From an uncultured Planctomycetales bacterium (GTDB lineage: Bacteria; Omnitrophota; Gorgyraeia; Zapsychrales; JANLHA01), in the NCBI GenBank assembly GCA_964489065.1, contig CAZAXH010000001.1:238592-302591 (forward strand): a DNA stretch of 64,000 bases, in the 5' to 3' direction. Position 1 is the stretch's first letter; every line of letters begins with the position of its first letter. Below, one piece after another: positions 47,219 through 62,700 of this stretch. The notes below the pieces were generated by a model. It did no database searches. It was not told the origin of the DNA and worked only from the letters and a program-made list of their open reading frames with translations. Made by a program: the position numbers and the translations under genes.

Positions 47219-48517
47219 TCAACTGGTCTTAACTCTCCCCCGCCCTTCACAATAAGGACAGACGCCAAACGCAATGGATTCCAGAGCTTTTCCGGTCCTG
47301 GCTCGTGTCATTTCAACCAGGCCCAAAGAAGAAATCTGATTGACTTCCGATTTGGCGTGGTCTTTTTTCAAGGCCACTTGCAAAGCCTCCAAAACTTTCC
47401 TCTTATGCATCTCGCGGGACATGTCGATAAAGTCTATAACAATAATTCCCCCCAGGTCGCGCAAACGAAGCTGGCGGGCAATTTCCGGGGCCGCTTCCAT
47501 ATTCACCATAAAAGCCGCTTCTTCAGGAGAAGCTTTGGTTTTAAACCGCCCGCTGTTAACATCAACGACCGTCAGCCCCTCGGTGGGCTCAATAACAATA
47601 TAGGCCCCCGACTTCAGGAGAACCCGCGGGTTATAAATCTTTTCAAGTTCCTTGGAGACCCCCTTCGCCTCAAAGAGCGGGCTGGTGCCCCGGTATAAAT
47701 GAATCTTGTGGATTTCTTCCTTCCCGATCAGGTTCTGGACGAACTTCTTGAGTTTAATAAAATCCGCAGACGAATCAATAACCACCTTATCCACCCGGGC
47801 GTTAAGATAATCCCTGACCACTTTCCATATAAGATCAAATTCCTTATAAATCAACGCCGGAGCTTTTTTGTTCTCGGACAATTTGGTGATCTGCTGCCAA
47901 ATCTTATAAAGAAACTTCGCGTCCCGGAGCAGTTCCCTCTTGCCTTGTTCAAAAGAAACCGTCCTGACGATAAACCCGCCCTGCTGCGTGAATGTAAACC
48001 CTTTCAGCACATCTTTCAGCCGCTGCCGCTCCTCTATATTCAAAATCTTTTTGGAAACGCCGTTATGGCTGTCAAACGGCATGTATACGATAAACCTCCC
48101 GGCGAGCGAAATATGCGTCGTCAGGCGGGCCCCTTTATTGCTGAACGGGTCTTTGACGACCTGCACCAAAATTTCCTGCCCCTCCTTCAGAGGCTGCGGG
48201 GACGCTTCTGGCCGGGGGCTTACTTTATGTCGGTGCTTTAAAAGACGGTGCAATAATTTTTTGGGACCGTTCAATTCTTCTTCCAGCAATGGGTTAATCG
48301 CGTCCGTCAAATAAAGGAACCCATTCTTTTCCTGTCCAATATTAACGAAAGCCCCGTTAATAGACGGCAAAATAGATTCAACCCTCCCTTTATAAATATT
48401 CCCCAAAATAGACTGGTCATTGACTTTCTCGATATAAAAATCGTCCAGCTTCCCTTCATCAATAATGGCGACCCGGGTTTCTCCCGTTCCGATCTGAATA
48501 AGAATCTCTCTCGACAC
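47219..48517 (-). CDS. rng: RNase E/G family ribonuclease (RNase G-like, short form)
   Basis: S1 domain, DNase I-like core and CPYCEGRGRV zinc link. GTG start with an AAGGAGGG RBS. Confidence 0.8.
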   Translation of the reverse strand: MSREILIQIGTGETRVAIIDEGKLDDFYIEKVNDQSILGNIYKGRVESILPSINGAFVNIGQEKNGFLYLTDAINPLLEEELNGPKKLLHRLLKHRHKVSPRPEASPQPLKEGQEILVQVVKDPFSNKGARLTTHISLAGRFIVYMPFDSHNGVSKKILNIEERQRLKDVLKGFTFTQQGGFIVRTVSFEQGKRELLRDAKFLYKIWQQITKLSENKKAPALIYKEFDLIWKVVRDYLNARVDKVVIDSSADFIKLKKFVQNLIGKEEIHKIHLYRGTSPLFEAKGVSKELEKIYNPRVLLKSGAYIVIEPTEGLTVVDVNSGRFKTKASPEEAAFMVNMEAAPEIARQLRLRDLGGIIVIDFIDMSREMHKRKVLEALQVALKKDHAKSEVNQISSLGLVEMTRARTGKALESIAFGVCPYCEGRGRVKTS

Positions 48518-48734
48518 AATCCCTCCTTATCCCTCAATCAAATTTTTTAACTGTTTAATGGCCCCGCCGCTCAAGGGGCCGACATCCGGCCCGGGAACAC
48601 GTCCCCGGTCTGGCATTAAATCCTCCCCTGAAGTCCGTAAAAGGACACCTCTGCCCCCACGTTCAAACAACAAGAACTGAAGGCAGAGGTCGCAATATTC
48701 AATCGCATCAATGCGTTACAGCCCAAGAACGCAA

Positions 48735-50084
48735 TTATGGCTGTTCCTGGGTAATGATATGCGGCGTCAGGAAAATAAGCAAATCCGTCTTAACCGATGT
48801 CTTTTCCGTCTTCTGAAAAAGCAAGCCAAAAATCGGGATGTCGCCTAAAATCGGGAGCTTCTTTTTCACATCCGTACTCTGGTCCTTAATCAAACCGGCG
48901 ATAACCAGCGTCTCCCCGTCTTTGATCATAACGCTCGTCGTCACTTCTTCGCTGCTCAACTGCGGCATCGACGTATTTTCCACTGTCACATAATCCAAAA
49001 TCGCGGTGATCTTCGGATTAATATCCAAAGTCACATGCCCGGCGTTGTTCACGTGCGGGGTCACCTCAAAAATAATACCAATATCCTTGAATTCCCAGTC
49101 GCTCACCTGCAGTTTGGCCTGGTCTTCATTATAACTGTATTTGGGAATCGGGTACTGGCTCCCAACGGTAATCTTGGCCATTTTGTTGTCCAGGGTCACA
49201 ATCCGCGGGTTAGACAGAATATTGGTATCGCTCCGGGTCGTCAGCATTTCAAAAACAGCCTGCGCCTCAGCAAAACTCAAAGTTCCAAGCGTGAATCCGG
49301 AAGAAACCGTGTCGGGTTGAAAACCCTCGTCACTGTCCCCTATCGCCGGGAAATTATAGGGCGAATATTTATTAGATGTGTCTATCGTAAATGGCCACAT
49401 ATGCGGACGGGCCGATCCCGTAACAGTCGCTTTGGCCACCCAATCAATCCCCAGCTTATCCGTGTTGCTTAAGGTGGTTTCGACAATCTTCGCCTCGATC
49501 AGAACCTGCGGAGTCGTTTTATCCAGCTGTTCGATAACCGCCGAAATCAACTCCAGGTTTCCCGGGATATCTCGGACGATCACGGAGTTGGTGCGCTCAT
49601 CCATATTAATGCTGCCCCGGTCCGTTTTCATTTTATCGATAGATTCCTTGACATCCGCCGCCTTCGCGTAATTCAGGACATACGTTTTGGTTACCAGCGG
49701 TTCCTGGTCCGCCAGCAACTTGGCGTCTTCCCGTCTTTTTTTCAAATTGTCAATCGTCGTGACGGTAATGATATTCCCCCTCTGTTCATACGCGTAGCCG
49801 TATGTCTCCAGGACGACCTGGAGCGCTTTCTGCCACGGGACATCCTGCAATTTAATCGTGATCAAACCCGTCACTTCCGGGCCGGCCACAATATTAACAC
49901 CGCTCTTGTAAGAGAGGATCCGCAGGACATTCTGAATATCCGCGTCCCTGAAATCCAGGCTGACATTCCCCCCCTCCGACATGGAAAGATTTTCCGGAGA
50001 ATCTGCTGTTGTGCCGTCTTGCGCATACACAGGTGTCATCATCAAGGCCAAAAAAATAACCAGTATTACCCATCGTCTAAACAT
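48735..50084 (-). CDS. pilQ: Type IV pilus secretin PilQ
   Basis: Signal peptide, AMIN/N0-like N-terminus, and a C-terminal secretin domain ending ...LLIFLTPHII. Confidence 0.8.
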   Translation of the reverse strand: MFRRWVILVIFLALMMTPVYAQDGTTADSPENLSMSEGGNVSLDFRDADIQNVLRILSYKSGVNIVAGPEVTGLITIKLQDVPWQKALQVVLETYGYAYEQRGNIITVTTIDNLKKRREDAKLLADQEPLVTKTYVLNYAKAADVKESIDKMKTDRGSINMDERTNSVIVRDIPGNLELISAVIEQLDKTTPQVLIEAKIVETTLSNTDKLGIDWVAKATVTGSARPHMWPFTIDTSNKYSPYNFPAIGDSDEGFQPDTVSSGFTLGTLSFAEAQAVFEMLTTRSDTNILSNPRIVTLDNKMAKITVGSQYPIPKYSYNEDQAKLQVSDWEFKDIGIIFEVTPHVNNAGHVTLDINPKITAILDYVTVENTSMPQLSSEEVTTSVMIKDGETLVIAGLIKDQSTDVKKKLPILGDIPIFGLLFQKTEKTSVKTDLLIFLTPHIITQEQP

Positions 50085-50085
50085 A

Positions 50086-50475
50086 TTAGTCCTCCTTTTT
50101 GAGTTTTAGAATAACTCGTTCTTGACCTTTTTGTAATGTCACGCGGTTCTCTTTTATATCCTTAACGGTGAACACACCGATAGATTCGTCCTTCTGCAGA
50201 ATTTTTCCGTTAATAATCGCCACGCTTTTCCCTCCGTCCCCGACGTAAATCCCTTCCAGAACCAAATCCGTCGCCAAAAGATCCTTCTCCAAGTTAACAA
50301 TCATCCCCTTAGAATTCACCAGCGGCCAGAAGGGGTCGCGTTTGTCATGGCTGTCGTACACATAGTCGGCGCTGGCCTCCTCAGCCTCATCCTCGGCGCC
50401 GCCGCAAGGCGTAACGCCGGCCAAGGTCACGATCAGCAGAATTGTCCAAAATCGGATTTTTGTCTTCCTCATCAT
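50086..50475 (-). CDS. pilP: PilP-like pilus assembly lipoprotein
   Basis: 129 aa; signal peptide with Cys and a beta-rich C-terminus. Assigned by position between pilO and pilQ. Confidence 0.45.
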   Translation of the reverse strand: MMRKTKIRFWTILLIVTLAGVTPCGGAEDEAEEASADYVYDSHDKRDPFWPLVNSKGMIVNLEKDLLATDLVLEGIYVGDGGKSVAIINGKILQKDESIGVFTVKDIKENRVTLQKGQERVILKLKKED

Positions 50476-51074
50476 TTCTGCCCGCCTTCAAACACAACCA
50501 GTTCGATCGCCAAATTAATGGATGCCGTCTGTTGGTCTTCCCGGCCTGTTTCAATTGAAAAATTCGGCAATCGCAAAAAAATACCGTCTCGCTCCAGTTC
50601 ATTCAAAAACCGGCCGAACGGATGATAACCGCTCTCCGCTTCTATAACAATAGGAATAGAAAAATATTTCCCCTCATTATTCTCCAGAACCGGATCGTTG
50701 ATGGCCGTCTGCGGTAAAATCTGTTCTATTTTTACACCATGTTTATCCGCGATCCTCGAAATATTTTCCAAAAGAAACGGGATATCCTCTTTACGCTTAA
50801 TCCTCCGCTGCAGATTCTGATACTTGTCTTCCAGCCGTGACAATTCTTTTTTATACTGGTTAACCCGAAGGATATTATTCCTGGTTTCAGCCGTTTCCCG
50901 GTTCAATTCTTCCAGCTTGGGATTAATGGCCTGCAGAGTCTTCAGTTGAAACTGCAAGGGGAACAGATAGAAAATCACAAGAATCACCGTAAAGACGCCC
51001 GCCAATAAGAAGAAAGGGTTCTTTTCGCTGATTTTATTCACCACGGACCCCATCTGATTCTTGATATCACTCAT
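50472..51074 (-). CDS. pilO: PilO-like pilus assembly protein
   Basis: 200 aa; N-terminal TM helix followed by a coiled-coil and ferredoxin-like region. Assigned by position. Confidence 0.55.
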   Translation of the reverse strand: MSDIKNQMGSVVNKISEKNPFFLLAGVFTVILVIFYLFPLQFQLKTLQAINPKLEELNRETAETRNNILRVNQYKKELSRLEDKYQNLQRRIKRKEDIPFLLENISRIADKHGVKIEQILPQTAINDPVLENNEGKYFSIPIVIEAESGYHPFGRFLNELERDGIFLRLPNFSIETGREDQQTASINLAIELVVFEGGQK

Positions 51075-51101
51075 TTCTTTTACCCTTATCCCGGGGGGCC
51101 T

Positions 51102-51686
51102 CTACAAATCCACCCGGATCGTAAAATCCGCAACCGGTGTTCCGTTGATTGTCCGGCTTTTAATGTACTCCAGCTCTATTTCACTAAAGTCCCTCATAAA
51201 AGCATGGTTGTCTTTTAAACTGGTATTAAAACTGTGGACGCTGATCATTTCCGTCTGTGTTTTGGAAACAGCGCTGCCGTTGATCAGCAAAATCCCGCCC
51301 TCCAGCTGCATTTTGGTTAACCACACTCCGCGCGGAAGATTATCGCTGATCTCGTTTAATTTCTGTGACCACACAAAATCCCGGCTCCCCAGAACTTCTT
51401 CCAGAGGAGCGAGTTTGCCGTTAATCTCTTTAATCTGCCCGACATAGCGCTCTGTGTTGATTCTCTGCGGAACGAGTTCGGCCAGCTCAGACATCAAACG
51501 CTTGCGTTCGGCCAGTTTCAAGGAAATCATAAATTGCAAAGCGCCCGCGCCCAGGGCCAGGACAACGATAAACAGGCCAGTATAACCAATAATCGCCTGT
51601 TTCGACAACCCGGCGGACGGCTCACTGGAAGGGAGAGCTTTCCTCTTTTTTTTCAATTGAGGAGGGACTAAATTTATTTCAATCAT
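51102..51686 (-). CDS. pilN: Type IV pilus assembly protein PilN
   Basis: MIEINLVP N-terminal motif (INLLP-like) followed by a TM helix. Confidence 0.65.
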   Translation of the reverse strand: MIEINLVPPQLKKKRKALPSSEPSAGLSKQAIIGYTGLFIVVLALGAGALQFMISLKLAERKRLMSELAELVPQRINTERYVGQIKEINGKLAPLEEVLGSRDFVWSQKLNEISDNLPRGVWLTKMQLEGGILLINGSAVSKTQTEMISVHSFNTSLKDNHAFMRDFSEIELEYIKSRTINGTPVADFTIRVDL

Positions 51687-51733
51687 AGATTATCCCCTGC
51701 TTTACCTCATTGTATCTCCATCGCTGAACATGC

Positions 51734-52798
51734 TCATGAATACAAAGACAACCCGAGGGCCACGGACAGAAACGCCGTGTTGGACTCCAAATCCTCCCTC
51801 TTAGCCGTGTCTCCCTGTGTCAGCCAAGGAAACGGGTTCCAGCGTGACACTTTGATATCAAGATTTTTAAAAATAATATCGTCCATCCCTTCCAACTTAG
51901 ACGTTCCGCCGGTTAAAAGCAAATGGGTGATACCCACATTCTTCTCTGTCATAAAGTAGTCAAAAGACAACCGGAGTTCCGAAACCAGATTAATAATCAC
52001 CGATTCGCAGGCGTCCAGCACCTTGACCAACTGGTCTTTGGGGTTCCTCTTCAAACTCTCCGCTTCTTCATACCGCAGGCTCAAGGAATTCGTTAAGGCC
52101 TTCGTAAAGTCTCTGCCGCCGATAAAAACATCCCGGGTAAACAACGGCATCCCCTGGACCATAATGGTAAGATTGCTGACAACCTCCCCGATGTCCAGGA
52201 TAGCGACGGCGGCATGCTTGGAGGCGTCCGGCGCTGTTTCCGGATTTTCCAGCATTTTCGGGTTCAACACGTTCATAATATTGGAAATCGCAACCGCGTT
52301 AAGAGAAATAAAATTGGGATGGTACCCCAGTTCCGTGAGAAAGGCGACGCGGTCGTCGATGATTTCTTTCTTTGCGGCGGCCACCAGAACCAGCATTTTA
52401 TTATCTTTTAACGTGGTGTTCAGAATGTGGCAATCCGTGTAGATTTGGTCCAGAGGGAAAGGGAAATATTTGTCCGCCTCAATGGCGAAACATTTTTTCA
52501 AATCTGCGAGGGGCATGCGGGGAAGCTCAATATAGCGGATCAGGGTGCCTTTTCCGCTGACGGCGGTGAAAGGATCCATAGCCTCAGCCGAAAGGTTGCG
52601 CAGAGTTTGTTTGACCGCCTTCTTCTGGTCGCCCCCTTCCACAGGAACGACCGCCCAGTCCAGAAGCGTATAGGCGGATCCGGCCTTTTTTACTTTTATA
52701 CCTTTACAGGCAAACGTTCCGATATCCAGCCCGACCGTCACTGCGCCGGCTTTCTCCGGGACAACTCCTTTAAATGCTTTTTTAAAAAAACCTGGCAT
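51734..52798 (-). CDS. pilM: Type IV pilus assembly ATPase-like protein PilM
   Basis: 354 aa actin-like fold; VGLDIGTFACKGIKV. Confidence 0.8.
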   Translation of the reverse strand: MPGFFKKAFKGVVPEKAGAVTVGLDIGTFACKGIKVKKAGSAYTLLDWAVVPVEGGDQKKAVKQTLRNLSAEAMDPFTAVSGKGTLIRYIELPRMPLADLKKCFAIEADKYFPFPLDQIYTDCHILNTTLKDNKMLVLVAAAKKEIIDDRVAFLTELGYHPNFISLNAVAISNIMNVLNPKMLENPETAPDASKHAAVAILDIGEVVSNLTIMVQGMPLFTRDVFIGGRDFTKALTNSLSLRYEEAESLKRNPKDQLVKVLDACESVIINLVSELRLSFDYFMTEKNVGITHLLLTGGTSKLEGMDDIIFKNLDIKVSRWNPFPWLTQGDTAKREDLESNTAFLSVALGLSLYS

Positions 52799-53015
52799 AA
52801 TAAGAATGTCTTACTCTTATATAAAAATTCCCTGCGGAGAATTTTTATAACCTGTTTATATTAAATAAATAATATTATCCTTATTGTAACAAAAACATCG
52901 CGGACTTCAAAAGCGCATTCTGTTTTTTTTGTTTCCCCCTATTGCGCCACAACCTCGAACTTCTACAGCCCCCGTGCTTATCTTGGGTCTAAAGAATCAT
53001 GCTCCTCGGGAAACC

Positions 53016-53156
53016 AGCCGCCGGTTACCGCTGCTGGCCGGCCAACCGGATCTGCTGCTGAATATCCTGGTTCACAATCACGAGGTACCGGGCGAATGCG
53101 ATAAACCCAAGGATAAGCGCGGCAATAATAATCATGTTAAAGTTCGGAGGTCTCAT
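53016..53156 (-). CDS. Possible 46-aa single-TM small protein or leader ORF ahead of pilM
   Basis: Manual translation: MRPPNFNMIIIAALILGFIAFARYLVIVNQDIQQQIRLAGQQR. It has a GGGAGAGGGA RBS and an extended -10 element 25 nt upstream. It is below the ORF-track cutoff. Confidence 0.3.
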
Positions 53157-53184
53157 CTGTCCCTCTCCCTATTTTAACCGGTGC

Positions 53185-53193
53185 ATTATAACA
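53185..53193 (-). promoter_or_regulatory. Extended -10 promoter element TGTTATAAT
   Basis: A perfect TGnTATAAT on the minus strand, immediately upstream of the small ORF and the pilMNOPQ block. Confidence 0.35.
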
Positions 53194-53325
53194 CCTTTTT
53201 ATTCAAGCACTAGATTTTTAATATTTTAATACACCCTTGCTTCTAAAAATCTATTCTCCGTTCCCGACTCATCACACCCCCCGCATTCATCCCCGGGCAT
53301 GCCCGCGGTCTTCTGCGAAGGCGGA

Positions 53326-53357
53326 CAAAAAGAGGGGGGCCTTTTTAGGCCCCCCTC
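53326..53357 (-). terminator. Strong Rho-independent terminator after pilA
   Basis: On the minus strand: GAGGGGGGCC-UAAAAA-GGCCCCCCUC followed by UUUUUG. Confidence 0.8.
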
Positions 53358-53396
53358 AAAACCGAATCACAAACTTTCACAGACGGGCTACGGAGT

Positions 53397-53789
53397 CTAC
53401 ATACCTCCCGTCAGGATGCCTCCGGTCGTAATCGTGAATGTCGTTGTCCCGGACGTCCCGACCGTAACCGGCGTTGCCGTAAACGTGTAATAACCGGCAT
53501 TGAACACACAATTAAAATTAAACCCGGACACTGTCGTGCCGCAATAATTGGTGTTGATATACGGCGGTGTCGCGCCAGTCAAAGACGTTTCATTCGCTGG
53601 ATAGTTCCCGGTATTGGCCGTCGCGAATGTCTCCGAGGATGTTGACAATGACCGCAGCGTACTTTTTGCCAGCGCGTCATTAGCGGAGATCTTAGCCCTT
53701 AACAGGTTAGGAATCGCGATAGCAGCCAGTAAAGCGATAATGGCCACAACGATCATGATTTCGACGAGCGTAAAACCTTTTCTGTTCAT
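53397..53789 (-). CDS. pilA: Type IVa major pilin
   Basis: Prepilin leader plus GFTLVEIMIVVAIIALLAAIAIP. The C-terminus is Thr/Gly-rich with two Cys forming a disulfide loop. The start is at MNRKGFTLVE. Confidence 0.85.
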   Translation of the reverse strand: MNRKGFTLVEIMIVVAIIALLAAIAIPNLLRAKISANDALAKSTLRSLSTSSETFATANTGNYPANETSLTGATPPYINTNYCGTTVSGFNFNCVFNAGYYTFTATPVTVGTSGTTTFTITTGGILTGGM

Positions 53790-53934
53790 GTTCTGTCCCT
53801 CCTTCCTCAAGCCTGGATTTACCGCGTCCGCCTTACCAATATCCCAGCAGAAAACTGATGAAAGAATAATGACGGTTTACATAATCTGCTGTGTGTCTTC
53901 GGTTTAGCGACACGATCGACTTTATTCTTTCCCT

Positions 53935-53962
53935 ATGCTAACACATGGACTCAAGCTGTCAA
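53935..53962 (-). promoter_or_regulatory. Sigma70-type promoter for pilA (TTGACA-16-TGnTAGCAT)
   Basis: Read on the minus strand. It lies between the upstream terminator and pilA and gives a leader of ~140 nt. Confidence 0.4.
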
Positions 53963-53970
53963 TTCAAATC

Positions 53971-54150
53971 AAAAAAAAATCTGTCCTTCTTCAAGAGGGA
54001 CAGATCACTATTTATGCCTATATCTTTCCTGATGGCAACTGGCTGCCCTCTTTCGGCCGGAACTCCGCCTCCTGTAGGGCCCTATAGCTTTGTGTCCCAT
54101 CCTTACGAATGGTTTACCTTTTGCATCACCTGATTGTCAAGTCTACTGAA
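53971..54150 (-). ncRNA. Candidate ~170-nt small RNA transcription unit with a promoter and intrinsic terminator but no ORF
   Basis: A TTGACA-18-TATACT promoter at 54151-54180 drives ~170 nt of noncoding sequence. It ends in the hairpin UCUGUCC-11 nt-GGACAGA followed by U9 (53971-54004). Confidence 0.35.
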
Positions 54151-54180
54151 AGTATACAACCCGCCTACTTAAAATGTCAA
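54151..54180 (-). promoter_or_regulatory. Sigma70-type promoter (TTGACA-18-TATACT) 18 nt downstream of the coiled-coil gene stop
   Basis: It uses the same hexamers as the tRNA operon promoter at 37463-37491. Confidence 0.45.
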
Positions 54181-54197
54181 GGCCGTTTCCCTGCCGG

Positions 54198-55772
54198 TCA
54201 TTTCCGACGAAGCCCCTTATCCCGAGCTTTTAAAAGCCCCCCGACTTTTTTCTGCAGCCCCTGATTTTCGCGCTGCAGGACCTTCAAATAGTCATTCAAC
54301 TGCGTTTCTTCCCGGGAAAAACTTTCCGCGGCTTTCCGCTCTTCTTCATAACGGGCTTCAATAATCGACAGGGAGCTCGTCAGAACCGCCTCTCTTAATT
54401 GTAAAGCCTCCACGTCCCTTTTCAGTTTCTGACTTTCAGAAACCGGCACCGGGGCGTTATTATCTTCTTCATCCGGGACCCAAGAGGCCTCCGCGGGCTC
54501 GTCCAGATCAATATCCTCCAGAAGCCGCGTCAATTCTTCTTTGATCTCCTGCGCGGACGGCGAAGCCCCCTGGCCCTTCTGGGCTCTCTGACAATCGGCC
54601 TGCAAAGCAGCAATCTCTTTTCCCAGCAACTTTTCTTTCTTGCGATAAGCCTTGGTTTGAATCTGTCCCTTTCGAATAGACAGGTTCAAATCGTCGATAT
54701 CGTCTGCCAATTGTTCCCGGGAAACGGCCCATGAAGCGGAAGACGGAGATGGGATCCAAAAAGCCGCCGCGTCCTGCAAAGGAAGCCTTTCGCTCAAAAC
54801 CTGTTTTTTCCTCCTCAACAGATCCGTTTCCTCCGCCAGGACCCGGCGGAAAATAACCGCCTGTTTTTCCTGCTGCCGCGAGGCGACGCGAACAACCTCC
54901 TGCAGGTCCTGGATATCAGCAAAAATTTTCTCTAACTGCTCCTTATCACTCCGCAGCCGCGCAATATCCTCTTGAAGACCGGCTAACGCCGCCTTGTCTT
55001 TAAGGGCGGCTGTCTCCCGTTGCTGGTTGAACTTTTCCAAAGTCCCTTCCGCGGCCGACAAACGGCCTTGACTCTCCGCCACCCTCGGCAGCCAGGCCTC
55101 CTTTTGGGACTTTAATTCCTCCGTCCGGTTTTTTTGCGACGATATTTTTTGTTGAAGCTTGCGGACACTCTCTTTTCTCCTGTCAATATCGTTTCGCAAA
55201 GCATCACACCGCGCGATCAACGCCTCCTTCTCTTCCTGTTTGTCTCTCTGTAGCGGTTGCGCACTCTTTTGCTGAAGGCGTTTCTGAAAAAAAGACACTT
55301 CCTCTTGCAGCAACTGGGCTTCCTCCTGAAGGCGTTTCTGCTTGTCAAGCATGACGCTCATTTGCACTTCTTTATCGTCCCGGTTCACATCATGATTTTG
55401 CCCTGCTTTCCGTAAGGCCTCCAGATCCTTCAGCAAATTATCCCGGTCTTCCTCCTGCAAGGTCAGGGCCTCCCGCAGAACCTTTTGATCCGCAAGAAGC
55501 TGATCCCTCTCCTGCTGAAACCCGGCCAGATCTTGCTCATATCGCTCAAGGGCCTGGCGCAAAGCCTTATTCTTCTCTCCCATCTGCGTGTTCTTCCGTA
55601 AGGCTTCCCCCATCGCCTCTTTCAGATCCCGGACAGCGGCCGCCAGCATCTGTTCGGCGGGCGCCGCCGGCTCAGCCGCTTCCAACTCCTGTGTGGCGGC
55701 CTGCTGCGGAAGGCAGAGCCCCCACACGCCGGCCAATACAAAAAAAGCATATTTGCGCAGAACCACAGACAT
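54198..55772 (-). CDS. Secreted long coiled-coil protein of unknown function within the pilus operon
   Basis: 524 aa. N-terminal signal peptide (MSVVLRKYAFFVLAGVWGLCLPQQAATQ), then ~480 aa of E/Q/K/R/L/A-rich heptad-like sequence. It starts 44 nt after the pilC stop. Confidence 0.6.
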   Translation of the reverse strand: MSVVLRKYAFFVLAGVWGLCLPQQAATQELEAAEPAAPAEQMLAAAVRDLKEAMGEALRKNTQMGEKNKALRQALERYEQDLAGFQQERDQLLADQKVLREALTLQEEDRDNLLKDLEALRKAGQNHDVNRDDKEVQMSVMLDKQKRLQEEAQLLQEEVSFFQKRLQQKSAQPLQRDKQEEKEALIARCDALRNDIDRRKESVRKLQQKISSQKNRTEELKSQKEAWLPRVAESQGRLSAAEGTLEKFNQQRETAALKDKAALAGLQEDIARLRSDKEQLEKIFADIQDLQEVVRVASRQQEKQAVIFRRVLAEETDLLRRKKQVLSERLPLQDAAAFWIPSPSSASWAVSREQLADDIDDLNLSIRKGQIQTKAYRKKEKLLGKEIAALQADCQRAQKGQGASPSAQEIKEELTRLLEDIDLDEPAEASWVPDEEDNNAPVPVSESQKLKRDVEALQLREAVLTSSLSIIEARYEEERKAAESFSREETQLNDYLKVLQRENQGLQKKVGGLLKARDKGLRRK

Positions 55773-55815
55773 CCCGTTACACCTTATCGTTTAAAATTCA
55801 GGATTTCCCCAAGCG

Positions 55816-57015
55816 TTAAATAATCTGAGTAATGCTAATAATCGGCAAGAACAGCGCAATGACAATAAAACCAACCACGATACCCAAAAAACCAATAATG
55901 AGCGGCTCAATAATGCTCGTCAAACCCGCCACGGCCGCGTCCACCTGATCGTCATAAAAATCCGCGATCTTCCCAAGCATCTTCTCCAACTGTCCGGATT
56001 TTTCACCAATGGAAATCATGCGCGTCACCATCGGAGGGAAAACACCGCTTTTGACCAGTGGGGTCGCAATGCTTTCCCCTTCGCGGACATTGTTTTTCAC
56101 ACTGATCACCACATTTTCCACCACCCGATTGCCACTGGTCTTCCCGACGATATCCAAAGATTCCAGGATCGGGACGCCGGTCTGCAGCAACGTCGCCAGC
56201 GTGCGGCTGAACCGGCTGATAGCCACTTTCCGGATCAATTCGCCGAAAATAGGCACCCGCAATGACATTTTATCAATGGCCTCCCGGCCCCGGTCGGTTT
56301 TATACCACCGGCTTAACAGAAATCCCAACAAAACAATCCCTCCGATGAGATACAAAAGGTTTTTCTTCAGCATGTCGCTGGCCCCGATCAGCATCTGTGT
56401 CATGGCCGGCAATTCCGAATTAAAAGAATCGTAAATGGAGGCAAAAGTAGGGACGACTTTGACCAGCAGGATAATGGTAATGATGATGGCCATAAACACA
56501 ACGACCGTTGGATATATCAGGGCTGATTTGACTTTGCGTTTCAGCTTGAGTGTCTTTTCGAGGTAGGAGGAGATGCGGTCCAATATGGCGCTCAATACCC
56601 CGCCCGTTTCCCCCACTTTGACCATATTCACAAAAAGAGTGTCAAAAGCCTTGGGATGCTTGGCAAACGCCGCCGACAAACTGCTCCCCATCTGGATATC
56701 GTCCCGCACAGCGATGACGACACTCTGAAAATAAGATTGCGTGATCTGCTCCTGCAAAGCGTCCAGGGCCTGAAGAATCGGGATCCCCGCGTCAACCATC
56801 GTAGATAACTGCCGGGAAAAGATAACCAGATCTTCCGGCTTAACGGACTTCTTGACAAAAACCGTTTTGGATGCCACCTTAACCGGCTTCACGTCAATGA
56901 TTGTCAGGTGGCGCTTGCGGAGTTCCTCTATAACCGCAGCCTGATTCTCGGCGCTGATCTTCCCGACAACATTGCGCGCCCCCTGATCCTTGGCGACATA
57001 TTTAAAAGTCGGCAT
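55816..57015 (-). CDS. pilC: Type IV pilus platform protein PilC (GspF family)
   Basis: 399 aa with two GspF repeats and three TM segments. Confidence 0.85.
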   Translation of the reverse strand: MPTFKYVAKDQGARNVVGKISAENQAAVIEELRKRHLTIIDVKPVKVASKTVFVKKSVKPEDLVIFSRQLSTMVDAGIPILQALDALQEQITQSYFQSVVIAVRDDIQMGSSLSAAFAKHPKAFDTLFVNMVKVGETGGVLSAILDRISSYLEKTLKLKRKVKSALIYPTVVVFMAIIITIILLVKVVPTFASIYDSFNSELPAMTQMLIGASDMLKKNLLYLIGGIVLLGFLLSRWYKTDRGREAIDKMSLRVPIFGELIRKVAISRFSRTLATLLQTGVPILESLDIVGKTSGNRVVENVVISVKNNVREGESIATPLVKSGVFPPMVTRMISIGEKSGQLEKMLGKIADFYDDQVDAAVAGLTSIIEPLIIGFLGIVVGFIVIALFLPIISITQII

Positions 57016-57225
57016 AACCTATTCCTTTTGCGATATGATCCAAAAGTAATTGTACCATCATTTCACCCCGGATAAAAAGTGTTTCAATAAATTTTTTTAT
57101 GAATTTCATTTTACGAGCCGCGAAAAACCCATCAGGTTGCCGGACGATAACGCGTTCCCCTCTTCTCCTTCCTTTATCTTTATATTTTTATTATTTCCCG
57201 GGAGAAAGCCAAACCCGGCGGCGTC

Positions 57226-58935
57226 TCAATCATTGGATGTGATCCTCAAAACTTCATCGAGCGTCGTCTCTCCGTCACACAATTTCTGCAGGCCGTCTTC
57301 CCAAAGCGTCAGCATGCCGAGTTTTTTACGGGCATATTCCTTTATTTCGTCGGAAGACTTTCCCAGAATCAGCATCTCGCGGACATGATCATCAAGCGGC
57401 ATCATTTCCGTGACCCCCAATCTCCCGTGAAAACCGGTGTGCCGGCAGGAATCGCATCCCTTTCCATGATAAAAAACCCGGTCCTTCTTGACAGGGATGC
57501 CCAACTCCCTTAAGACTTTATCCGGGATGTCCATCACCTCCTTGCAACGGGGGCAAATTCTCCGGCACAATCGCTGTGCACAGACCAGCACCAGGCTGGA
57601 TGACACCAGGAAAGGCTCCACTCCCATATCCACCAGGCGAGTCAGCGCTCCGGCCGCATCATTCGTATGCAGCGTTGAATAGACCATCTGCCCCGTTAAA
57701 GACGCCTTGATGGCGATATCTGCGGTTTCGTAATCACGGATCTCCCCCACCATCACAATATCCGGACTCTGCCGGAGAATCGCTTTTAACCCTTCGGCGA
57801 ACGTCAGCCCGATATCCGGCTTCACCTGAATCTGCGTCAAGCCATCCACGACATATTCAACCGGGTCTTCAATCGTAATAATATTTTTATCCACCTTATT
57901 CAATTCATTAATAATCGAATACAGGGTCGTGGATTTACCGCTTCCGGTCGGCCCGGTCACCAGGATCATCCCGAACGGCTGGGCGATCGCGTCCTGAAGC
58001 TTAAGCACCGACGCCCCGGAGAACCCAAGCCCGTCCAAACCGATGCGGAGGTTTTTCTTGTCCAGAACCCGCAGGACTATTTTCTGCCCGAAACTCGTCG
58101 GCAGAAGAGAAACACGGAAATCCACCTCTTGGTTGTTGACCCGCATCTTAAAACGGCCGTCCTGGGGCACCTGGGTGGCCGTGATATCCAGCCGGGACAT
58201 AATTTTGATACGGACAATAATGGCATTTTGGTTTTCCTTAGGGATTTTCATCGCGTGAACCAACGTCCCGTCAATCCGGTAACGGACACGCACGCAGTCC
58301 AGCATGGGTTCAACATGAATATCCGAGGCGCGCTGCTTGATCGCTTCACGGATGGCCAGGTTCACCAGGCGGATGATCGGCGCCTGCTCCCCCTCATCCG
58401 CCATCATCTCCGAATCAGTGACCAGCTCGCTGTCACTGATAATTTCCAGCTCTCCCACATCGATATCTTTACTGACGTCCTGAACCGAGTTGGAAATCTT
58501 GCTGCCGTAATAGGTTTCAAGCGCATGCAGGATGTCGGATTCCGTGCTCATCACGACGTCCACGTCCTTGCCTGTCAAATTCTTCAGATCATCAATCGCA
58601 AAAATATTCAGAGGGTCCGCCATCGCGATCGTCACAGTCTTCTGCATCTGGGATATCGGGAGGATCCGGTATTGGCGGGCCACCCTTTCGGGAATCGCGT
58701 CTTTTAAAGAAGGATCGATTTTGTATTTTTTAAGATTAATAAACGGGATATGCAATTCCCGGACCAGCAAAACCATCAGGTCCTCTTCTTTGATCAGCCC
58801 CTTTTCGATCAGGGCCCGGTCCAGGCTGATATTTTTGCTCTTCTGCAATTCTATCGCTTCATCCAGATCCTCTTTTTTGATTTTGAGGCTCTCAACAAGC
58901 GTTTGAATAATTTTTGTCTTGAGTGGTTGTGACAT
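57226..58935 (-). CDS. pilB: Type IV pilus assembly ATPase PilB/GspE family (paralog 2)
   Basis: 569 aa. T2SSE_N domain, Walker A GPTGSGKSTT, and tetracysteine CPRCK...CDSC. Confidence 0.85.
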   Translation of the reverse strand: MSQPLKTKIIQTLVESLKIKKEDLDEAIELQKSKNISLDRALIEKGLIKEEDLMVLLVRELHIPFINLKKYKIDPSLKDAIPERVARQYRILPISQMQKTVTIAMADPLNIFAIDDLKNLTGKDVDVVMSTESDILHALETYYGSKISNSVQDVSKDIDVGELEIISDSELVTDSEMMADEGEQAPIIRLVNLAIREAIKQRASDIHVEPMLDCVRVRYRIDGTLVHAMKIPKENQNAIIVRIKIMSRLDITATQVPQDGRFKMRVNNQEVDFRVSLLPTSFGQKIVLRVLDKKNLRIGLDGLGFSGASVLKLQDAIAQPFGMILVTGPTGSGKSTTLYSIINELNKVDKNIITIEDPVEYVVDGLTQIQVKPDIGLTFAEGLKAILRQSPDIVMVGEIRDYETADIAIKASLTGQMVYSTLHTNDAAGALTRLVDMGVEPFLVSSSLVLVCAQRLCRRICPRCKEVMDIPDKVLRELGIPVKKDRVFYHGKGCDSCRHTGFHGRLGVTEMMPLDDHVREMLILGKSSDEIKEYARKKLGMLTLWEDGLQKLCDGETTLDEVLRITSND

Positions 58936-58959
58936 GATGAAACGGTTTTTAATCTCCCC

Positions 58960-60726
58960 TCAGTCCGGGGTTTCAGCCGGAGTCTTCTCCAGGGGCTCGT
59001 CAGCCGCAGTGACGCGCAGGACCTCTTCCAGCGTCGTCAGGCCGGCCAGGGCTTTGGCCATGGCATCCTCCCGCATCGTGGTCATACCTTCCCGTCGCCC
59101 CATCATTTTAATCTGCAGTTCCCCGGCCCGCTGTAAAATGCCCTTACGGACCGGCGGCGTAAGGACCAGGATTTCCGAAATACCCACCCGCCCGCTGTAG
59201 CCGGTCTTCAGACAGTTCTTGCATCCTTGTCCGCGGGACAGCCTGATGTCCCCTTTCTTGCCCTGCGCCTTCAACCCCACTTTCTCCGCCATCTCCGGAG
59301 ACAGGACAAATTCTTCCTTGCATTTCGGGCAGATCCGCCGGAGAAGGCGCTGCCCCACGACCGCGATGACGGAGGAACAAATCAGAAACGGTTCCACCCC
59401 CATATTGACCATACGCACAATCGACCCCGCCGCCGTGGTCGTATGCAGGGAACTCACCACGAGATGCCCGGTCAACGCGGCTTTAACCGCAATATCCAGG
59501 GTTTCACTTTCCCGGATTTCTCCAATCATAATGACATCGGGGTCCTGCCTCAAAATAGACCGCAGGGTTGAGGCAAACGTCAGGCCCACGCTGGGTTTCA
59601 CGTTCACCTGGTTCAGTCCCGCCATCTGGTACTCCACGGGATCCTCCACGGTCACAATATTTTTTCCCGGTGAGTCAATATACTTCAAAATCGAATACAG
59701 GGTCGTTGTCTTCCCGCTGCCCGTCGGGCCGCAGGACAGGATCATCCCGTGCGGCTTATCCGCGCATTCCTTCAGCCGGCGCAAAGCCTCCGGCTGAAAC
59801 CCAAGGTTATTGATGTCCACGGCCCCCGCGGATTTATCCAGAACGCGGAGCACGATCTTTTCCCCAAAAATCGTCGGGAGGACATTGACGCGAAAATCAA
59901 CCTCCTTGTTCCCGGACAGGATCGTCCGGAACCGCCCGTCCTGCGGAATGCGCCGCTCCGAGATATCCAAATTAGACACGACTTTCAGCCGGGAAATAAT
60001 CGCCAGGTGCAGGGCCTTGGACATCTGGTCAATTTCGCGGATGACCCCGTCCACCCGGTAACGGATGCGCAATGTTTTTTCCAGAGGCTCAATGAAAACG
60101 TCGCTGGCTTTCGCCATAACGGCCTGTTGGATGATGGTGTCCGTTAATTTGATCAAAGGGGCGTCCTGGGAAATATCCTCGACCGAAACTTTTTCCGAAT
60201 CCAGGTCCTGCTCTTTGACCAGCTCCAGTTCTTCGGCGTCCCGCATGTCCTTAATGATGCTTTCCAAAGTTTCTCCCGACTCCACCGGAGAACCCTGTGT
60301 GTAACAGCGCTCAATAGCATCCGCCAGTTGAGTCGAGCGGGCGATGATCGGCGTGATGCTTAACCCCGTCAATGCCTTCACATCATCGATAACAAAAATG
60401 TTCAAAGGATCAGCCATGGCGAGGGTCAGGTTCCCGCCCATTTTGGACACCGGCATGATTTGATATTTCTGCGCCACGTCCCGCGGGATCAGTTTCACGA
60501 CACTGGGATCGATTTTAAGCCGGGAAATATCTATCGGGGGGAGGCCCAATCCTTCGCTGAGGATATGGGTCAAATCATCTTCACTGATCAGGTTCATCCG
60601 GACCAGCACCTGGCTGAGGTCACCGCCAGAGTTCTTCTGTTCCAAGAGAGCCCTGTCCAAATCTTCCTGTTTGATAATATTATCTCTCAACAGGATTTGC
60701 TGTAACCGTTCTTTTAAGGAAAACAT
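58960..60726 (-). CDS. Type IV pilus assembly ATPase PilB/GspE family (paralog 1)
   Basis: 588 aa. T2SSE_N domain, Walker A GPTGSGKTTT, and tetracysteine CPKCK...CKNC. Confidence 0.85.
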   Translation of the reverse strand: MFSLKERLQQILLRDNIIKQEDLDRALLEQKNSGGDLSQVLVRMNLISEDDLTHILSEGLGLPPIDISRLKIDPSVVKLIPRDVAQKYQIMPVSKMGGNLTLAMADPLNIFVIDDVKALTGLSITPIIARSTQLADAIERCYTQGSPVESGETLESIIKDMRDAEELELVKEQDLDSEKVSVEDISQDAPLIKLTDTIIQQAVMAKASDVFIEPLEKTLRIRYRVDGVIREIDQMSKALHLAIISRLKVVSNLDISERRIPQDGRFRTILSGNKEVDFRVNVLPTIFGEKIVLRVLDKSAGAVDINNLGFQPEALRRLKECADKPHGMILSCGPTGSGKTTTLYSILKYIDSPGKNIVTVEDPVEYQMAGLNQVNVKPSVGLTFASTLRSILRQDPDVIMIGEIRESETLDIAVKAALTGHLVVSSLHTTTAAGSIVRMVNMGVEPFLICSSVIAVVGQRLLRRICPKCKEEFVLSPEMAEKVGLKAQGKKGDIRLSRGQGCKNCLKTGYSGRVGISEILVLTPPVRKGILQRAGELQIKMMGRREGMTTMREDAMAKALAGLTTLEEVLRVTAADEPLEKTPAETPD

Positions 60727-60734
60727 GACGTTCC

Positions 60735-61190
60735 TTAGGAGGTGGTGGTGCTGCGATATCTCTTAATCGCTTCTTTAATGTCGCTAGCCGTTGAAACAAA
60801 CGTCTGAACACTGCAGCCGGTCAGCATTTCAATATCTTCCACGGCGATACGATTCAGGGGATTCGCCATGGCGACCGTTAAACTTTTTCCGATCTTATCA
60901 ATGGGGATCAAACAGTATTTTTTGCAGACGCCTTCCGGAACCGCGTTGAGGACCTCCTGATCAATCTCATAATTCGACAAAGGAAGGAAAGGGAATCCAT
61001 ACTGACAGGTGAGGGCCTGGGCGATATCTTCCTCCGTGGCGAACTTCAGCTCGACCAGAATTTCGCCGATAAGCCCGCCTTTTTCGTTTTGATAGGCCAT
61101 GGCCATGGCGACTTGCTCCCGGTCAATAACGCCTTTCTCAACGAGCAGTTCCCCCAAATGTTTATTGGATGTGCGTTTGTAATCTTTCAT
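60735..61190 (-). CDS. Stand-alone T2SSE_N / MshEN-like domain protein (151 aa)
   Basis: KHLGELLVEKGVIDREQVAMAMAYQ fits the RLGxxLLxxGLLxxxxLxxxLxxQ-type motif, with G and Q conserved. The rest resembles the N1 domain of GspE/PilB (IPIDKIGKSLTVAMANPLN). Confidence 0.6.
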   Translation of the reverse strand: MKDYKRTSNKHLGELLVEKGVIDREQVAMAMAYQNEKGGLIGEILVELKFATEEDIAQALTCQYGFPFLPLSNYEIDQEVLNAVPEGVCKKYCLIPIDKIGKSLTVAMANPLNRIAVEDIEMLTGCSVQTFVSTASDIKEAIKRYRSTTTS

Positions 61191-61246
61191 ATGTCAGGGT
61201 ATACACCCTCTTTATGATCTTATCTTAAACAAAAATTGCCCTTGAC

Positions 61247-61417
61247 TCAATGAACATTTAGTTTACACAACCCAAGAGAGCGTAAACTAGAAATGCAAAT
61301 TGATCCTCCAGCGCGAGTGAGCCAGGAGAACGAGTCGAAGGATCTTGATTTACTATCCCGCAGCTTGCTGCGGTTAATTGAGTCCAGAGCTTGCTCTGGG
61401 GTTTATATCTTTGATTC
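61247..61417. repeat. Copy 2 of the ~170-bp structured noncoding element (opposite orientation to copy 1)
   Basis: See the copy at 852-1020. It lies between the rodA stop and the MshEN-like gene start. A TTGACT hexamer sits at its upstream edge and an extra hairpin GGCAAAA-AGAA-TTTTGCC sits downstream. Confidence 0.7.
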
Positions 61418-61559
61418 CATTCCCGGGCAAAAAGAATTTTGCCTATTATACAACATATTATCATTCTTATATATAATTTATAAAGAATTGTTTTTAAAAG
61501 CACGTCCCGGGACCGAAGACAGAACCCAAGGGTTGCCGGGCCTTTACAAGGACCCGGGA

Positions 61560-62666
61560 TTAGAAAATCGTGTGCCTCTTGCTTAAATTCAGCAAAACGC
61601 CGATCATAAATAATGAAACCATAAAAGACGTTCGTCCATAACTCACCAAAGGCAGCGTAATCCCCACCACCGGACACATCCCCAGCACCATGCCGATGTT
61701 AATCAAGACCTGTAAAGAGAAAATAACGATCATCCCCACCGCAATCTGCATACCGAAGCGGTCTTTCACTTGTTCTGCCACTTTCAGCCCCGCGTAAATC
61801 ACGACGCCATAACACAGCAAAAAAATCAGCGTCCCCAACAACCCCCACTCTTCTCCAATAACGGAAAAAATAAAATCCGTGTGCCGTTCCGGCAAAAAGT
61901 TCAGCTGATTCTGCGTTCCTGACAGCCATCCTTTCCCCCACAGCCGGCCCGACCCCACCGCAATTTTAGATTGAATAATCGTATAACCGGCCCCTAACGG
62001 ATCAATATTGGGATTCAGGAAAACCAGCAGCCGGTCTTTCTGGTACGGCTTGATAACATGCCAGCCGAACGGCATCAGAACAAGACAAATCATGAGGAAG
62101 CCCAGGATATACCGGTAACGCAGCCCGCTGGCAAACAGCATAAAAATAAAGATCCCGAAAAACAACAAAGACGTTCCCAGGTCGGGTTGCTTGAAAACAA
62201 GCAGCATCGGGACGAGAGTTATCAAAAGAGGCACAACCAGGTCGCGCCACAGCACCCCCACGGGACTGCGGGCCCGGGCAGAAAAAGAGGAACGCCGGTC
62301 GCTGAAATACCGGCCCAACCCGAAGATCAAACTCACTTTCGCCAGTTCCGAAGGCTGGAAGCTGATCCCGGCAATCGAAAACCATCGCTGGGCCCCCAAA
62401 GCGTGCCGGCCGGCGACCAGGACCAGGATCAGCAAGATCACGCTTCCCCCGTAAATAAAATAAGCCATATCATAAAATTTTCTGTAATCCACATGACTCA
62501 GATAAAGCAGCATAAAAAGGCCGAGCACCGAAAAAACAACCTGGTCATAGAAGACTTTGTGGGAAACCCGCACGTTCTGATAAGACGCGCTATACAAAGC
62601 TATCAGGCCAAACGCTATCACCGCGAAGGTAAAAATAAAAATCACCACCCCTATATCTCGGCGCAT
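61560..62666 (-). CDS. rodA: SEDS-family peptidoglycan glycosyltransferase RodA/FtsW (RodA by linkage to PBP2)
   Basis: 368 aa, 10 TM helices, adjacent to mrdA. Confidence 0.85.
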   Translation of the reverse strand: MRRDIGVVIFIFTFAVIAFGLIALYSASYQNVRVSHKVFYDQVVFSVLGLFMLLYLSHVDYRKFYDMAYFIYGGSVILLILVLVAGRHALGAQRWFSIAGISFQPSELAKVSLIFGLGRYFSDRRSSFSARARSPVGVLWRDLVVPLLITLVPMLLVFKQPDLGTSLLFFGIFIFMLFASGLRYRYILGFLMICLVLMPFGWHVIKPYQKDRLLVFLNPNIDPLGAGYTIIQSKIAVGSGRLWGKGWLSGTQNQLNFLPERHTDFIFSVIGEEWGLLGTLIFLLCYGVVIYAGLKVAEQVKDRFGMQIAVGMIVIFSLQVLINIGMVLGMCPVVGITLPLVSYGRTSFMVSLFMIGVLLNLSKRHTIF

Positions 62667-62700
62667 AAAACGATTCCCTCCTTAAAGCAGCAAATCCCTA

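Follow-up and report, generated by a model that had tools for sequence, protein, structure and literature searches.

A 64-kb stretch of Omnitrophota DNA (all 64,000 nucleotides of it are referred to below as the window) carries a cluster of type IVa pilus (T4aP) genes in which the platform gene pilC is directly followed by a gene, here denoted X, for a predicted exported coiled-coil protein of 524 amino acids (aa). X matches none of the known families tested, and the T4aP cluster, judging from the sequence, includes a clade-specific exported coiled-coil component that is without precedent. X founds a still unnamed Omnitrophota family of predicted exported, rod-shaped coiled-coil proteins, with homologues confined to Omnitrophota-type contigs. 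The gene is tied to the T4aP machine of one large Omnitrophota clade, in which its product probably serves as a new accessory component, the exact job of which we infer from gene context and conserved sequence features. Type IV pili (T4P) are among the best-studied bacterial machines, with a core part list considered essentially complete, and here an entire clade of an uncultured, little-understood phylum has retained one more gene, for an exported rod, beside the platform gene.

The link between X and the pilus genes is apparent from gene order. X orthologues at 91, 63, 55 and 36% identity occupy the same position, and close relatives share the order mreBCD-pbp2-rodA / MshEN-pilB-pilB-pilC-X / pilin / 42-aa open reading frame (ORF) / pilMNOPQ / rng-rplU-obg-proB. 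In a survey of 80 Omnitrophota pilC loci (numbered with an L; 2,522 ORFs of at least 80 aa), about 36 have a signal-peptide coiled-coil ORF directly 3' of pilC. These ORFs span 183–595 aa, have an N-terminal hydrophobic segment, consist to 55–71% of L/A/E/Q/K/R/D and are separated from pilC by a median gap of 12 nucleotides (nt; range −4 to 79). The PilC proteins of X-bearing loci are at least ~57–65% identical to that of the window. Linkage to pil genes is kept in every relative found (40 loci), and the positional conservation down to 57% PilC identity contradicts the suggestion, made in an earlier sequence-only reading of this DNA, that X might be an unrelated passenger.

In four loci (L044, L045, L047 and L048) the member of the X family lies between pilQ and pilM instead of beside pilC, in the order pilC, pseudopilin, pilN, pilO, pilP, pilQ, X family, pilM, riboswitch, pilin. 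The C-terminal repeats of these variants are bona fide tetratricopeptide repeats (TPR; TPR_2, E=4e-16), and the TPR is a protein-docking module. Because the TPR variants sit between pilQ and pilM in rearranged clusters, the X family appears to move with the pilus machinery genes. The slot after pilC seems to be a favored site for genes of exported accessory proteins: in L078 (11226-12722) it is taken by a 498-aa protein with a signal peptide but neither a coiled coil nor a Pfam match, and in L050 (11227-12273) by a 348-aa coiled-coil protein with a weak match to the X-family model (E=0.007).

The ORF of X stands exactly as the sequence-only reading had drawn it, with an ATG start on the minus strand; the gap after pilC is indeed short, at 43 nt rather than the 44 nt given there. 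No terminator-like site is seen in the pilC-X spacer, and a weak promoter-like match (9/12) lies within the 3' end of pilC (55865-55838). Co-transcription with pilC, which had been proposed for the whole pilB-pilB-pilC group, is plausible because of the 43-nt gap, the ribosome-binding site, the lack of a terminator and the median gap of 12 nt across the family. The two genes are probably coupled both translationally and transcriptionally.

Searches with X against Pfam, NCBIfam and PDB sequences yield nothing above any cut-off. The matches to DUF2779, SMC, Rad50 and cyanuric acid hydrolase are sub-threshold coiled-coil noise; those to SMC and Rad50 reach 12–24 bits, compared with cut-offs of 567–1087, involve the coiled-coil regions only, without the ABC-type ATPase heads that flank the coiled coil in SMC and Rad50, and are incompatible with the signal peptide. 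A profile of 36 sequences run against the PDB retrieves only the rods of myosin, tropomyosin, crescentin and SMC and is uninformative beyond 'coiled coil', and a Foldseek comparison of the AlphaFold2 (AF2) model with the PDB gives no match at E<=0.001, an extended helix being prone to non-specific matches. The description of X as uncharacterized, with no recognizable enzymatic or pilin motif, holds across Pfam, NCBIfam and the PDB, and homology to a known non-pilus family, sought in the same databases and with the profile against the PDB, was not found.

A word-indexed search of 5.8 billion proteins detects two non-self relatives, with 63 and 55% identity; the avian SLMAP coiled coils reached by its profile form were rejected as compositional drift. 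When 1.84 billion cluster representatives are searched exhaustively with HMMER, 51 proteins are found at E<=1e-3, 18 of them at E<=1e-10, and all are 490–620 aa long with a signal peptide and coiled coil, except for one spurious match that was discarded (P0049, a methyltransferase with coiled-coil repeats). The best-matching region in most of the remote homologues is the C-terminal module described below. The sole names given to X relatives by the sources are 'hypothetical protein [Candidatus Omnitrophota bacterium]'. PilC relatives in a species-level genome collection are nearly all Candidatus Omnitrophota, some of them mis-binned as 'uncultured Planctomycetales', and the nearest one (JAGOJP010000081) shows 99% PilC identity. 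Among the ORFs of the locus survey, phmmer matches from X are restricted to pilC-downstream signal-peptide coiled-coil ORFs, and jackhmmer converges in five rounds at 40 proteins, with no recruitment of PilN, PilO, MreC or other locus proteins; a relaxed search with the final model adds one pilC-downstream ORF, the one in L050. X has all the features that define the family: a signal peptide, an N-terminal module with Asn at heptad position 'a', a heptad rod, a C-terminal leucine zipper (...Y-L..L..EN..L) and a gene adjacent to pilC (or lying between pilQ and pilM). The middle of the protein can be nearly absent (183 aa in total), short (302–361 aa in total) or long (509–595 aa in total). No X paralogue was found elsewhere within the window.

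Export via Sec is predicted from hydropathy and from the n/h/c features of the signal peptide. The sole hydrophobic segment of X is the N-terminus, with hydrophobic 19-mer windows confined to residues 1–28, and hydropathy gives no second membrane segment beyond the signal peptide. Among 36 aligned family members, K/R precedes the hydrophobic core in 35, an AXA-like site is present in all 36 and a lipobox in two; X itself has none, its WGLC being neither a lipobox nor conserved, and its orthologues show a cleavage-like V-x-A site followed by Q. The mature N-terminus is predicted to be disordered, with a predicted local distance difference test score (pLDDT) below 50 for residues 21–38; in the linker of residues 27–38, amino-acid identity is 0.32–0.89 and the ratio of nonsynonymous to synonymous substitution rates (dN/dS) is 0.33–0.66.

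The remainder of the protein is a heptad-regular rod. X is rich in L (12.8%), A (11.8%), E (11.5%), Q (10.3%), K (8.8%) and R (8.6%), and past the N-terminus 70% of the residues are L/A/E/Q/K/R/D. The best-register heptad score is 0.417, whereas shuffled sequences score 0.25 ± 0.02 (z = 8.2). Behind the signal peptide, heptad-regular helix extends over about 485 aa, and each helical segment keeps a single register throughout. AF2 models X as all-helical whether 3 or 36 sequences are used, so the layout that had been read from the sequence, a signal peptide followed by a heptad-like coiled coil, is borne out by hydropathy, heptad statistics and modeling alike. The 36-sequence model (pLDDT 76.6) has helices at 39–168, 178–337, 346–401, 405–421 and 446–523 with low-confidence hinges in between, and the rod is modeled as four segments split by three hinges (169–177, 338–345 and 422–445). 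The alignment of 178–337 with 346–523 by hhalign has a probability of 96.6%, above the 66–92% of control pairs of other coiled-coil segments, which is suggestive only of tandem repeats.

Conservation is concentrated at the two ends, with column scores of 0.48–0.53 in the end modules versus 0.26–0.38 in the middle. The N-module (aa 39–100) places N61, which is invariant, and N68 on heptad position 'a'. The C-module (aa 446–523) has the consensus EI..L.LR...L..SL..I..RY.........F..EE..L.EYL.vL..EN..L..K...L, in which Y495, E502, N503 (again at 'a') and L506 are invariant, and L, I or F occupies 10 of the 11 'd' positions (L450, L457, L464, I471, F485, L492, L499, L506, L513 and L520). A buried Asn at 'a', as in the GCN4 Asn16 paradigm, specifies a parallel, in-register coiled-coil dimer. 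With invariant Asn residues in the core, at 'a' positions of the N- as well as the C-module, X would be a parallel in-register homodimer and not an intramolecular hairpin. The 'g' positions of the C-module (R460, S467, R474, E488, Y495, E502 and K509) are as conserved as the core (0.64), compared with 0.32–0.41 at b/c/e/f; this a/d/g stripe is wider than a two-stranded core needs, and the conservation at 'g' suggests a further surface for binding a partner.

Of the genes in the locus, X evolves fastest. Between the window and L001, identity is 95% for PilC, 87, 88 and 81% for PilN, PilO and PilP, and 63% for X; between the window and L006, the respective values are 89%, 74, 72 and 84%, and 36%. 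The dN/dS of X against three orthologues is 0.34, 0.28 and 0.20, and that of its pil neighbors 0.02–0.13, the pilin being an exception with up to 0.33 in the closest pair, where substitutions are few. X is a real gene under constraint by this measure. Every segment has dN/dS below 1 and is under purifying selection, with the C-module the tightest (0.09–0.25) and residues 338–445 the loosest (0.27–0.95). Across 35 loci, X falls into two main length classes and spans 183–570 aa, compared with 194–232 for PilN, 196–219 for PilO, 97–149 for PilP and 441–491 for PilQ; in these loci the length of X shows no significant correlation with that of PilN, PilO, PilP or PilQ (Spearman |rho| <= 0.29, p >= 0.22).

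Downstream of X, the locus changes control. A pilin gene does follow, as in the earlier placement of X between pilC and pilA, but the 387-nt X-pilin spacer holds a promoter, a cyclic di-GMP (c-di-GMP) class I riboswitch and a terminator that had been overlooked. Because these elements stand between X and the pilin, the locus is predicted to consist of two units, a motor/platform/X operon and a c-di-GMP-gated pilin unit, and the terminator would also stop read-through from X. The window aptamer scores nearly equally as the c-di-GMP-I-GGC variant, and several Omnitrophota copies score best as GGC. The riboswitch lies 3' of the X-family gene and 5' of the pilin gene in 12 of the 15 loci tested, with two copies in L021. 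A second promoter-like site (53962-53935) is located between the terminator and the pilin gene. Matches of the window pilin to PilA and GspG are N-terminal only; in L003, the pilin is called as 130 aa. Control of a pilin by a c-di-GMP riboswitch is known in Clostridioides difficile (e.g. PMC6200980); the same control in Omnitrophota was not found in the literature searched. Neither gene X nor the riboswitch is mentioned in the Omnitrophota papers on T4aP that were searched, in which the words 'coiled' and 'riboswitch' do not occur, and a search of the literature on periplasmic coiled-coil T4P components found nothing relevant.

The rest of the cluster (Table 1) encodes the alignment complex, including a separate bona fide PilN (PF05137) and PilO (PF04350), and a short PilQ secretin that has no AMIN peptidoglycan-binding domain; no pilotin-like or TsaP-like gene is seen in the window pil cluster. 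The locus looks heavily wired to c-di-GMP, with the riboswitch, a stand-alone MshEN protein and two MshEN-bearing PilB paralogues. The 151-aa MshEN protein appears, by eye, to keep the c-di-GMP-binding motif in its two halves, HLGELLVEKGVIDREQVAMAMAYQ and LIGEILVELKFATEEDIAQALTCQ, and second MshEN copies lie directly 5' of pilC in L044, L045, L047, L048 and L051. The 42–43-aa ORF between the pilin terminator and pilM is preceded by its own promoter-like TTGAAT...TATAAT and is nearly identical in three genomes where X is only 55–63% identical. The pil cluster is flanked by mreB-mreC-mreD-pbp2-rodA and rng-rplU-obg-proB-proA (window 45703-63972), a sandwich that is kept across Omnitrophota with or without X (L001, L002, L006, L012, L027, L034, L050 and L051). 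About 50 kb from the cluster (4443-5504, minus strand), the window encodes a T2SSE-family ATPase of 353 aa that lacks an N-terminal MshEN domain, a PilT-like retraction ATPase candidate, next to genes for an isopropylmalate/isocitrate dehydrogenase and an aminotransferase; in the X-less loci L057, L070, L078 and L082, a PilT-like gene is found just 5' of the MshEN gene. In L047 (5281-9528) and L048 (5250-9527), an inserted ORF of ~1,420 aa separates pilB2 from the MshEN-pilC genes, and large ORFs beside pilus genes are a reported Omnitrophota theme.

Table 1. Coordinates of gene X, its parts and the neighboring features. Positions refer to the window unless a surveyed locus is named; AF2, AlphaFold2.
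Feature	Position	Strand	Basis
Gene X, 524 aa, predicted exported coiled-coil protein	54198..55772	minus	ORF, ATG start
Predicted Sec-type signal peptide, ~aa 1-26, MSVVLRK / YAFFVLAGVWGLCL / PQQAA, cleavage site approximate	55695..55772	minus	hydropathy and family n/h/c features
Pro/Ala/Glu-rich linker at mature N-terminus, aa 27-38, poorly conserved, low-confidence	55659..55694	minus	pLDDT, dN/dS
Conserved N-module, aa 39-100, consensus sL..LK.s......N..L..(E/K)N..LR	55473..55658	minus	alignments, register
Helical rod segment 1, aa 39-168, one unbroken register	55269..55658	minus	AF2 helix, register run
Helical rod segment 2, aa 178-337, after hinge 169-177 (SAQPLQR)	54762..55241	minus	AF2 pLDDT up to 93, register run
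Helical segments 3-4, aa 346-421, after Pro/Ser hinge 338-345; least constrained rod part	54510..54737	minus	AF2, dN/dS
Acidic Pro-containing disordered linker, aa 422-445, variable in alignment	54438..54509	minus	pLDDT <50 at residues 422-443
Conserved C-module, aa 446-523, leucine zipper	54204..54437	minus	alignments, register, conservation
AAGGTG ribosome-binding site, 8-13 nt 5' of the X ATG, inside pilC-X spacer	55780..55785	minus	sequence read
pilC, T2SSF platform protein, immediately 5' of X	55816..57015	minus	PF00482, E=1.9e-66
PilB-type assembly ATPases in tandem, 569 and 588 aa, both with MshEN N-domain	57226-58935 and 58960-60726	minus	PF00437, PF05157
Stand-alone 151-aa MshEN-domain protein, first operon gene	60735..61190	minus	PF05157, E=2.2e-20
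Near-consensus sigma-70-like promoter, TTGACA-18-TATACT, 11/12, 18 nt after X stop	54151..54180	minus	promoter scan
c-di-GMP-I (GEMM-I) riboswitch aptamer, 70 nt 3' of X stop	54031..54128	minus	RF01051, 58.4 bits vs gathering score 35
Intrinsic terminator, 12-bp stem and T9, riboswitch expression platform	53970..54005	minus	sequence read, terminator scan
Major pilin gene, probable ATG 53789, ORF open from 53810	53397..53789	minus	N_methyl motif
Conserved 42-43-aa ORF MRPPNFNMIIIAALILGFIAFARYLVIVNQDIQQQIRLAGQQR, one predicted transmembrane helix, between pilin terminator and pilM	53025-53156; L001 12603-12731; L002 12605-12733	minus (window)	
pilM-pilN-pilO-pilP-pilQ, alignment and secretin genes	48735..52798	minus	Pfam domains
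PilQ secretin, short, 449 aa: N0/STN, one Secretin_N, Secretin	48735-50084	minus	Pfam domains
Riboswitch copies in other loci	L001 11689-11785, L002 11689-11781, L006 12924-13018, L009 7101-7188, L012 12890-12975, L021 3869-3956 and 5004-5091, L022 4089-4158, L027 12205-12287, L031 12324-12405, L035 12226-12308, L044 17853-17935, L047 17520-17612		
TPR-ended X variants, 464-705 aa	L044 15284-16678, L045 15152-16570, L047 14801-16393, L048 14921-17038		N-module kept, C-terminal leucine zipper replaced by TPR

X may well be a parallel-dimeric envelope rod, made together with PilC, that docks or tethers parts of the T4aP machine, although the case is finely balanced. It would be a Sec-exported structural envelope protein of the T4aP machine of one large Omnitrophota clade, forming a parallel in-register homodimer, and operon or translational coupling would keep its amount in a constant ratio to that of the PilC platform. 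The two conserved ends would act as docking sites, one probably directed towards the inner-membrane platform and the PilMNOP alignment complex, and the other probably towards the secretin or a different partner in the envelope; between them, the hinged rod would be a flexible tether or cage element rather than a fixed-length spacer. In a system with a short PilQ, X may compensate for missing AMIN, LysM or pilotin-type accessories. A part of the machine is favored over a part of the fiber because X is transcriptionally separate from the riboswitch-gated pilin, and the periplasmic scaffold that was among the earlier suggestions survives as the best reading, one that we still infer rather than observe, because of this separation, the tight coupling to pilC, the docking-like ends and the TPR variant beside pilQ.

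Several observations weigh against an envelope rod of this kind. Loci with PilC 52–56% identical to that of the window have pilC followed by pilin or minor pilins and no member of the X family, so that X is dispensable for T4aP function in general. The rod is 3–10 times less constrained than any core Pil protein, and its fast evolution and variable length would be just as expected of a surface or secreted protein. With a predicted template modeling score of 0.26, the AF2 model does not fix how the segments are placed relative to one another. A fully extended rod would measure ~60 nm (estimated at ~0.15 nm per residue), which exceeds the typical width of the periplasm; X must then fold at the hinges, run along the membranes or pass out of the periplasm.

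Under the last of these options, X would be a T4P-dependent exoprotein or pilus-presented fiber, a dimeric rod that is carried through PilQ by the pilus and has an extracellular role, e.g. where the cell touches a host or prey. This main rival is unlikely, albeit not far-fetched: X has a Sec signal peptide, no membrane anchor and no enzymatic domain, and its gene lies directly after the platform gene in a pilus operon, as tcpF follows the platform gene tcpE in Vibrio cholerae. The disordered mature N-terminus resembles the export signal of TcpF (PMC10120004; also PMC9565799, PMC6048534), but this segment is the least conserved part of X, with no conserved Tyr-type motif seen in the alignment, and the precedents are type IVb, whereas the system in the window is a T4aP with PilMNOPQ. 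The fastest evolution in the locus and the varying length are frequent among surface and host-interaction proteins, although dN/dS is well below 1 overall and diversifying selection would be limited at most to residues 338–445 in one close pair (0.95). The extended rod is, by estimate, too long for the periplasm and, at a width of ~2 nm (own estimate), the dimer would fit the secretin channel; host attachment has also been proposed for Omnitrophota T4aP (PMC10066038). Conversely, X shares a unit with the motor and platform genes rather than with the riboswitch-gated pilin, and the TPR-ended variant between pilQ and pilM looks like a machine component. A bolder version, for which the chances are slim, would make X the first T4aP-dependent fibrous exoprotein, a parallel coiled-coil dimer loaded by its end modules on the pilus tip and passed through the AMIN-less PilQ to serve as a rapidly evolving, length-variable host or prey contact fiber of ultra-small, host-dependent Omnitrophota, with the pilin riboswitch timing the deployment of the pre-made machine and cargo.

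Three further roles would keep X in the envelope. It is improbable that X is a general coiled-coil protein, i.e. a periplasm-organizing, cell-wall or morphogenesis factor that shares an operon with pilC without being specific to the pilus. The embedding of the pil cluster between mreBCD-pbp2-rodA and rng-rplU-obg across the phylum, the lack of a pilus-specific motif in X (Pfam, NCBIfam) and a weak generic similarity to YbgF and EnvC-type M23 activators among the PDB noise speak for such a factor, but the gene tracks pilC, at a tight or overlapping spacing, rather than mre/rodA, it stays with pilQ and pilM in the rearranged clusters (L044–L048), X-less Omnitrophota keep the same mre...pil...rng synteny, and the window contains no paralogue. 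A molecular ruler or fixed spacer that sets a distance in the machine, such as that from the inner membrane to the secretin, is very unlikely. The conserved ends and the variable-length helical middle resemble known rulers: Lpp sets periplasm width, and YscP, FliK and tape-measure proteins set the length of needle, hook or tail. The idea of a ruler, raised in the sequence-only reading, is nevertheless disfavored by the threefold variation in the length of X without co-variation in PilN, PilO, PilP or PilQ and by the three hinges that break the rod; moreover, no length-controlled structure is known to us in T4aP, the fibers of which are dynamic. Scarcely any more credible is a functional analogue of FimV or TsaP, i.e. 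a peptidoglycan-anchoring accessory that fixes the secretin in the wall, which had been proposed as well. X is exported and co-encoded, and a PilQ without AMIN domains might need another wall anchor, but X and 36 relatives have no LysM, AMIN, OmpA-like, SPOR or other peptidoglycan-binding domain (for X, none in Pfam or NCBIfam at E<=1), and hydropathy reveals no internal transmembrane segment of the FimV type in X.

If X is a part of the machine, it represents a new way to build or brace the periplasmic section of a T4aP without AMIN, LysM or pilotin accessories; if it is exported, pilus-mediated protein secretion would extend to T4aP and a host-contact factor would be indicated in Omnitrophota, the T4aP of which is thought to underlie attachment to host cells. 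In either case, about 50 sequence clusters that are now labeled 'hypothetical protein' gain a name and a model, and the conserved operon-riboswitch-pilin order offers a compact, testable c-di-GMP circuit.

In function, X comes closest to the lineage-restricted envelope accessories of T4aP, namely FimV, TsaP and the TPR pilotins, and its TPR variant to CpoB in domain order, but none of them has its sequence, its place after pilC or its architecture of a rod alone. Among the known systems, long helical proteins with a poorly conserved middle between conserved ends, such as Lpp, YscP, FliK and phage tape-measure proteins, share the general layout of X; unlike them, X shows no homology to these proteins, no lipobox, no C-terminal Lys and no T3S4 domain. 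PilN and PilO (GspL/GspM-like) are periplasmic coiled-coil dimers of the T4aP alignment complex, and X is envisaged as a coiled-coil dimer in the same machine; in contrast to X, each is a bitopic membrane protein of ~200 aa built around a ferredoxin-like core domain, and X has no match to PF05137 or PF04350 in Pfam. TcpF of the V. cholerae toxin-coregulated pilus and CofJ of enterotoxigenic Escherichia coli CFA/III are Sec-exported, encoded in type IVb pilus operons and carried out via a disordered mature N-terminus that binds the minor pilin at the tip (PMC10120004, PMC9565799, PMC6048534). Both resemble X in being soluble, Sec-dependent and encoded in a pilus operon, and in the disordered mature N-terminus, which in X is predicted and is compatible with export without being diagnostic; they differ in being globular rather than coiled-coil and in belonging to type IVb systems, and no similarity of X to either was found by Pfam, PDB-sequence or Foldseek searches.

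For the TPR variants, the genes of which adjoin pilQ, the nearest comparisons are the TPR pilotins PilF/PilW/Tgl and CpoB (YbgF); the X of the window has no TPR. Pilotins are lipoproteins, whereas 34 of the 36 aligned X-family members have no lipobox; the TPR variants are outside this set, and the N-terminus of the L044 variant has no lipobox by eye. As candidates for PilW, the variants score 33–36 bits versus a cut-off of 154 (TIGR02521), for Tgl 20–28 bits versus 225, and for CpoB/YbgF 19–22 bits versus 90.1 (TIGR02795), and all three assignments were rejected. CpoB has its TPR domain after a short trimeric coiled coil and is encoded in the tol-pal operon, and the context of the variants is pil, not tol-pal; nonetheless, the variants and CpoB have a signal peptide, a coiled coil and a C-terminal TPR in the same order.

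FimV (Pseudomonas) and TsaP (Neisseria, Myxococcus) differ from X in having a LysM peptidoglycan-binding domain and in that their genes do not follow pilC, and FimV has, in addition, a transmembrane segment and a cytoplasmic TPR part. The LysM and FlgT-like domains of the TsaP type are not detected in X by Pfam or NCBIfam, and the AF2 model is all-helical. FimV, like X, is long, acidic and partly coiled-coil or TPR, and both FimV and TsaP are, like X, non-core, clade-restricted proteins that accompany the T4aP machine.

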